The position numbers were made by a program, and so were the translations under genes. Source: a virus (lineage: Duplodnaviria; Heunggongvirae; Uroviricota; Caudoviricetes). Taken from it: 9,858 nt of DNA. The stretch lies in IMG/VR virus record IMGVR_UViG_2711768004_000003. One strand, written 5' to 3'. Positions 5,325-5,675 of this stretch are shown piece by piece; within the stretch, counting starts at the first letter, position 1; the number at the start of each line of letters is the position of its first letter. The notes below the pieces were generated by a model, which did no database searches, had not been told where the DNA came from, and saw only the letters and a list, made by a program, of their open reading frames with translations.

Positions 5325-5675
5325 NNNNNNNNNNNNNNNNNNNNNNNNNNNNNNNNNNNNNNNNNNNNNNNNNNNNNNNNNNNNNNNNNNNNNNNNNNNN
5401 NNNNNNNNNNNNNNNNNNNNNNNNNNNNNNNNNNNNNNNNNNNNNNNNNNNNNNNNNNNNNNNNNNNNNNNNNNNNNNNNNNNNNNNNNNNNNNNNNNNN
5501 NNNNNNNNNNNNNNNNNNNNNNNNNNNNNNNNNNNNNNNNNNNNNNNNNNNNNNNNNNNNNNNNNNNNNNNNNNNNNNNNNNNNNNNNNNNNNNNNNNNN
5601 NNNNNNNNNNNNNNNNNNNNNNNNNNNNNNNNNNNNNNNNNNNNNNNNNNNNNNNNNNNNNNNNNNNNNNNNNNN
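5325..5675. other. Undetermined sequence (351 consecutive N)
   Basis: Direct observation. The run removes the holin start and its upstream region. Confidence 1.

Follow-up and report, generated by a model that had tools for sequence, protein, structure and literature searches.

A run of N at the Shiga-toxin cargo position of a lambdoid prophage most probably stands for a 651-nt pinholin leader

The late regions of phage 21 and of the Stx2e-converting phage phiP27 (NC_003356) are the described systems with which the present DNA is best compared. In phage 21 the genes follow one another in the order Q21, pR', terminator, tRNAs, S21, R21 and Rz/Rz1. Two tRNAs (Asn and Thr) immediately precede the holin gene there, the last of them about 119 nt from S21. 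In phiP27 the tRNAs are Ile and Arg, a methyltransferase is present, lysis is provided by a cassette with two holins and an M15-type endolysin, and the toxin genes stxA2e and stxB2e are found between tRNA-Arg and the holin. The presence of stx in this slot is described in a review as a general rule for all Stx phages (PMC8065619). A third point of reference is the lysis cassette of the DLP12-type cryptic prophage of E. coli (essD, rrrD, rzpD).

The window, by which we mean the whole stretch of DNA analysed here (9,858 nt; IMG/VR virus record IMGVR_UViG_2711768004_000003), is a mosaic lambdoid prophage. The highest-scoring phage record for it is phiP27, which covers 54% of the window at 87.6% identity; the portal/terminase/HNH and DnaB replication modules of the two are 83-94% identical. 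The late region repeats the gene order of phage 21. All genes around the N run are carried by the minus strand, and the late operon reads Q, candidate pR' and tR', an ORF6N gene, a terminator, four tRNAs, the N run, a pinholin, a SAR endolysin and Rz; beyond Rz are an HNH endonuclease gene, genes for the P27-type small and large terminase subunits, and a portal gene. The features, listed in the direction of late transcription, are as follows.

7283-7690, minus strand: antiterminator Q (PF06530, E=2.7e-52)
7171-7278, minus strand: putative late promoter pR' (7278-7249) followed by a tR'-like terminator (7187-7171), both close behind Q; consensus matches only
6239-6802, minus strand: ORF6N-domain protein gene, 187-aa form (PF10543), between Q/pR' and the tRNAs
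6134-6163, minus strand: hairpin (6163-6142) resembling an intrinsic terminator, placed after the ORF6N gene and before the tRNAs (-12 kcal/mol in the relative L018, 3676-3715)
5739-6049, minus strand: four-tRNA cluster, in transcription order Met/Ile(CAT), Arg(TCT), Thr(TGT) and Gly(TCC), predicted by ARAGORN
5676-5738, minus strand: 63-nt spacer at the right edge of the gap, directly downstream of tRNA-Gly in the direction of transcription; identical in relatives
5325-5675, no strand: N run, gap or unresolved sequence; 651 nt at the equivalent place in near-identical relatives
5143-5324, minus strand: visible 3' end of a class II holin gene of the phage 21 type (pinholin), comprising by translation residues 13-71 with the stop, plus 2 nt of codon 12; the gene's first 34 nt are masked by N
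4646-5143, minus strand: SAR endolysin of the R21/RrrD type, 165 aa (PF00959, E=2e-45), 96% identical to the SAR endolysin of phage 21
4185-4661, minus strand: Rz i-spanin (PF03245, E=3e-52)

The ORF6N product is called with an identical 187-aa sequence in complete genomes. This gene, within the region 6239-7278, has a promoter-like site of its own at 7037-7009 and fills part of the cargo region. The tRNA at 5973-6049 is scored by ARAGORN as Met (anticodon CAT), while RefSeq relatives have it annotated as tRNA-Ile; it would then be ileZ-like, with the CAT anticodon modified by lysidine. All four anticodons presumably read codons that are rare in E. coli (AUA, AGA, ACA and GGA).

A first-pass annotation, made from the letters of the window, had drawn attention to the 351 N at 5325-5675 and placed them at the site where Stx phages carry their toxin genes. 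Both observations stand. The N run is the only ambiguous stretch, and the sole non-ACGT run, in the whole window; it lies downstream of Q/pR' and the tRNAs and upstream of the holin (5324 downward), in the same position as stxA2e/stxB2e of phiP27. The annotation had also proposed that about 11 N-terminal codons of the holin were removed and that about 317 nt more extended towards the tRNAs, which agrees with the near-identical relatives, where the intact holin gene begins 34 nt inside the masked block. Thus 11 codons and 1 nt are hidden under the N run, and the other 317 N lie farther upstream. The further suggestions, that the block hides cargo, that the holin is truncated and that a length divisible by three is telling, fared less well; the last carries no weight, the prior for such a length being one in three.

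Relatives of the window were gathered with a 35-mer from the right flank, which retrieved 29 IMG/VR contigs and 4 loci in species-representative genomes, and by exact-protein look-ups, which added further assemblies. The IMG/VR contigs L018 and L029 are 99.98-100% identical to the window over 5.3 kb to the left of the N run and 4.2 kb to the right, with 651 nt separating the flanks in each. The 651-nt spacing recurs in five large contigs, each of about 4.8 Mb, and in two short ones from drafts, all of which match at 99.86-100% on both sides; four of the five large contigs have complete-chromosome accessions (CP104423.1, LR213449.1, CP151372.1 and CP049183.1). At eight loci on other chromosome-sized contigs (4.7-5.0 Mb, fetched via the ORF6N protein) the gene spacing agrees to within 9 nt, except for one that is 39 nt shorter. 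Overall, 37 of the 38 related loci with both flanks have an interval of 645-652 nt and the remaining one has 2104 nt. A byte-identical 651-nt sequence is shared by 17 loci, and the small length differences that can be traced among loci are in a C homopolymer of 4-7 bases. In a search of 5,426 complete E. coli genomes, every record among the matches listed with both flanks in full has 650-652 nt. None of the collections searched yielded a natural variant of about 351 nt, and IMG/VR and the JGI metagenome contigs contained no flank spacing of 338-366 nt when scanned with a pattern that does match the N run of the window itself.

The flanks of the N run are therefore collinear with a continuous 651 nt in chromosome-sized contigs, so that a count of 351 N in the window faces 651 real bases. 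Since all copies with 99.86-100% identity have 651 nt, the N count is, as judged from these relatives, not the true length of the interval, and the truncation of the holin appears as an artefact of the data. The suspicion of the first-pass annotation that the true content exceeds 351 nt is borne out in every one of these copies. It had also named an outcome that would count against its reading, namely that closure of the gap would yield only the 5' end of the holin and a spacer of matching length; in the relatives the content is of that kind, and the length is not, being 300 nt greater than the N run.

The anatomy of the interval is described on L018 (4170-4820), the plus strand of which runs in the direction of late transcription. 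The 651 nt consist of the first 34 nt of the intact 71-aa holin gene, with its ATG at L018 4787, and of the leader of that gene; the rest, about 500 nt, is non-coding. After the tRNA-Gly trailer there is a weak terminator-like hairpin at 4365-4384 (-10.7 kcal/mol), followed by two strong hairpins at about 4519-4600 (-44 kcal/mol together, z = -4.7). A strong intrinsic terminator, with a 10-bp stem and a U run, is found at 4720-4746, about 40 nt ahead of the holin start (-18.8 kcal/mol, z = -3.2). The interval matches no Rfam family at E<=1, none of its ORFs matches Pfam, and neither stxA nor stxB is present as an ORF in the interval of the copies with 99.86-100% identical flanks, the window's own interval being N. 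Among 50,697 phage records it has no match beyond the holin start and a weak 140-nt piece, and it is therefore not part of any sequenced Stx phage. The hidden cargo that had been proposed is replaced in these copies by a holin 5' end and a non-coding leader with terminators. Two small ORFs were considered as genes of the interval and rejected: a 98-aa ORF called by some annotations does not match Pfam and looks non-coding, and the ORF of a 63-aa hypothetical protein, annotated in variants that are 88% identical, is not preserved in the present lineage.

The two strong hairpins have U runs behind them on one strand only, the one antisense to the late operon, and could be terminators of an antisense transcript or a small RNA. 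Covariation and strand use were examined among about 80 loci; these hold only about four sequence types, and the wobble and mismatch patterns point in opposite directions depending on the type.

The lysis genes that adjoin the gap can be read through from the visible part. On the minus strand, 5143-5322 translates to residues 13-71 of a 71-aa holin, ending in KAARGE and the stop, and these residues are identical between the window and a relative. The intact 71-aa holin of near-identical relatives matches PF04971 (Phage_holin_2_1, P21 holin S) with E=1.5e-35; the protein as rebuilt from relatives shares 92% of its residues with S21-71 of phage 21. Its hidden N-terminus is MYQMEKISTGI in the relatives, followed by A12 (the L018 protein begins MYQMEKISTGIAYG). 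This contains two in-frame starts, M1 and M4, whose codons fall under the N run in the window; a dual start of this kind may give a long (antiholin) and a short (holin) product. The likeness of the endolysin to the SAR endolysin R21 includes the N-terminal hydrophobic segment. With the holin family, the SAR endolysin and the spanin all in agreement, the cassette is by sequence of the phage 21 type, and the holin, truncated according to the first-pass annotation, is, going by the intact gene of near-identical relatives, whole in reality. Annotation pipelines would miscall it here as a pseudogene.

We consider it highly probable that the N run has no biological meaning and marks a gap left by sequencing or assembly, or some equivalent placeholder, in the draft of one copy of a widespread, near-clonal lambdoid prophage, and that the real DNA at this place is most probably 651 nt long. 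That this genome carries the very same 651 nt is likewise most probable, to judge from its relatives. As to the origin of the gap we infer assembly or scaffolding, the simplest reading being that 351 is a size estimate made by a scaffolder. Scaffold gaps of estimated size in draft bacterial assemblies resemble the present case in that an N run of non-standard length joins two normal contigs, and the gap here is presumably of that type. The draft GCA_001256535.1 has a 257-N run beside its copy of the Q/RusA/DnaB segment of this prophage, which shows that odd-length N gaps do occur in such drafts and that the prophage is prone to scaffolding artefacts. In that draft (contig CXEP01000389.1; L042, 2650-2906) the N run in the Q/RusA region adjoins a locally duplicated piece of 78 nt. 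Deliberate masking on the basis of content is unlikely because the identical 651 nt are unmasked in every collection searched. The shortfall, 651 minus 351, is exactly 300 nt, a figure that neither a repeat nor a natural variant accounts for; the difference could come from some processing step rather than from a scaffolder's estimate.

A counterpoint to the gap reading is that ordinary drafts cross the interval, so that there is no demonstrated cause for an assembly to fail exactly here: the short-read draft contigs L049 and L050 run through it without trouble. The IMG/VR contigs that end inside the interval do so at scattered positions (225, 270, 308, 339 and 543). The idea that contig ends mark the boundary of a repeat was rejected, as these ends scatter, ordinary drafts cross, and there is no consistent break point.

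It is unlikely, in our estimate, that this genome differs from all its sequenced relatives, whether by a 300-nt deletion in the leader or by an insertion at which the assembly broke, be it an IS110-family element or some unknown moron. If the N were placed so as to preserve length, by masking or as low-coverage calls, the genome would truly have 351 nt and be a 300-nt deletion variant of the 651-nt leader. Some stored stretches are indeed masked as N according to the tool documentation, and the difference from the relatives is the round figure of 300 nt. However, direct repeats offset by 300 nt, through which such a deletion might arise, are missing from the 651-nt sequence, a spacing of 338-366 nt is absent from the 38 related loci and the listed complete E. 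coli genomes as well as from IMG/VR and the metagenome contigs, and the copies with 99.86-100% identical flanks all have 651 nt; we regard a true length of 351 nt as very unlikely. The single interval of 2104 nt, the only enlargement seen, directs attention to another possibility, in which the assembly was broken by a hidden insertion, most plausibly of a multicopy IS110-family element, and the true interval is about 2.1 kb. In that locus a 1449-nt element of this family, encoding a 398-aa DEDD transposase (PF01548 and PF02371), is inserted at one C-run, 5-10 nt upstream of the holin ATG. The element is complete in six related loci, including two complete genomes, with contig-end fragments in two more, and multicopy IS elements are a classic cause of gaps in short-read assemblies. 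Yet the right-hand contig should then include the approximately 607 nt that separate the IS from the tRNA side, and all 651 nt are missing. No copy with 99.86-100% identical flanks has the IS, and on the tRNA side most of the loci that bear it reach no more than 97.7-99.0% identity to the window; L015, which also bears it, is 100% identical on that side but falls to 94.7% in the lysis genes, and the left flank is lacking from the other loci with the IS. An IS behind the gap seems to us likewise very unlikely.

Real cargo in the gap, stxAB or another moron gene, is the reading that the location itself invites, the position being the known stx slot (PMC8065619), occupied as described above in phiP27. 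TerB/DUF3927 genes occupy the slot in a P27-like prophage of E. coli strain 100117. None of the 38 loci with both flanks has any gene there, however, and the near-identical chromosome-sized copies, including the four with complete-chromosome accessions, hold the 651-nt leader only. No sequenced Stx phage in the phage collection contains the sequence of flank and interval, and the stxAB pair alone takes up 1236 nt in phiP27, far above the estimate given by the N. We hold the chance of cargo at this place in the present genome to be extremely small. The preferred reading remains that of a gap in place of a 651-nt interval. The locus is of a kind already known and well understood, and the block is an artefact of the data. 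Its chief value is as a caution, in that an N run at the classic stx position invites the reading of a hidden toxin; the N count cannot be used as a length.

Under the gap reading, the hidden DNA would begin, in the direction of late transcription, with the tRNA-Gly trailer, continue as a non-coding leader of about 500 nt with one weak and two strong hairpins, and pass through the strong intrinsic terminator about 40 nt before the holin start and a ribosome-binding region to the first 11 codons of an intact S21-type pinholin. By the paradigm of phage 21 and lambda, RNA polymerase modified by Q at pR' would pass the terminators without stopping, even the one that immediately precedes the holin, and transcribe the tRNAs, after which the lysis cassette of pinholin, SAR endolysin and spanin (for the expression of which see PMC9636201) would be expressed. 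Nothing in the evidence suggests an additional function of the hidden interval, and to judge from the sequenced copies the slot is in this lineage free of a toxin or other cargo gene.

Within this shared plan the locus differs from the described systems in several respects. Phage 21 has two tRNAs and the present lineage four, and the distance from the last tRNA to the holin is about 680 nt here; the sequence of the interval is absent from phage 21. Moreover, Q belongs to a different family context here, and an ORF6N gene stands between pR' and the tRNAs. The long form of the holin starts with MYQM as against MKSM in S21-71, so that it lacks the extra Lys, a positive charge, that has been described for the long antiholin form of S21 (PMC9636201). 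In contrast to phiP27, the present lineage has neither stx nor another gene in the slot. The likeness to DLP12 is at the level of annotation only: RefSeq names the homologues in relatives essD/class II holin, rrrD and rzpD, at 91-93% DNA identity, and the region upstream differs.

The IS110-family insertion splits the lysis cassette from its leader; the element lies at 2267-3715 in L015 and is also present in L011, L016, L021, L035 (Shigella flexneri SFBU1023) and L037 (E. coli ECMA0423), and in part in L020 and L028. At the ends of the locus (L052-L055), transposase genes of the IS3 family (rve) adjoin the DnaB end or the HNH/terminase end in several complete genomes, which suggests that the prophage is an IS-eroded remnant in its host lineage.

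About 350 nt of the leader (L018 4406-4755, positions 66-415 of the interval) have counterparts of 88% identity in front of class II holin genes on many E. coli chromosomes. These positions are also 85% identical to an unannotated stretch on 558 mostly conjugative plasmids of the IncF/ColV type, about 400 nt from iss (for example L040, 4001-4344, in NZ_CP019456.1). The plasmid stretch beside iss is evidently a lambdoid remnant.
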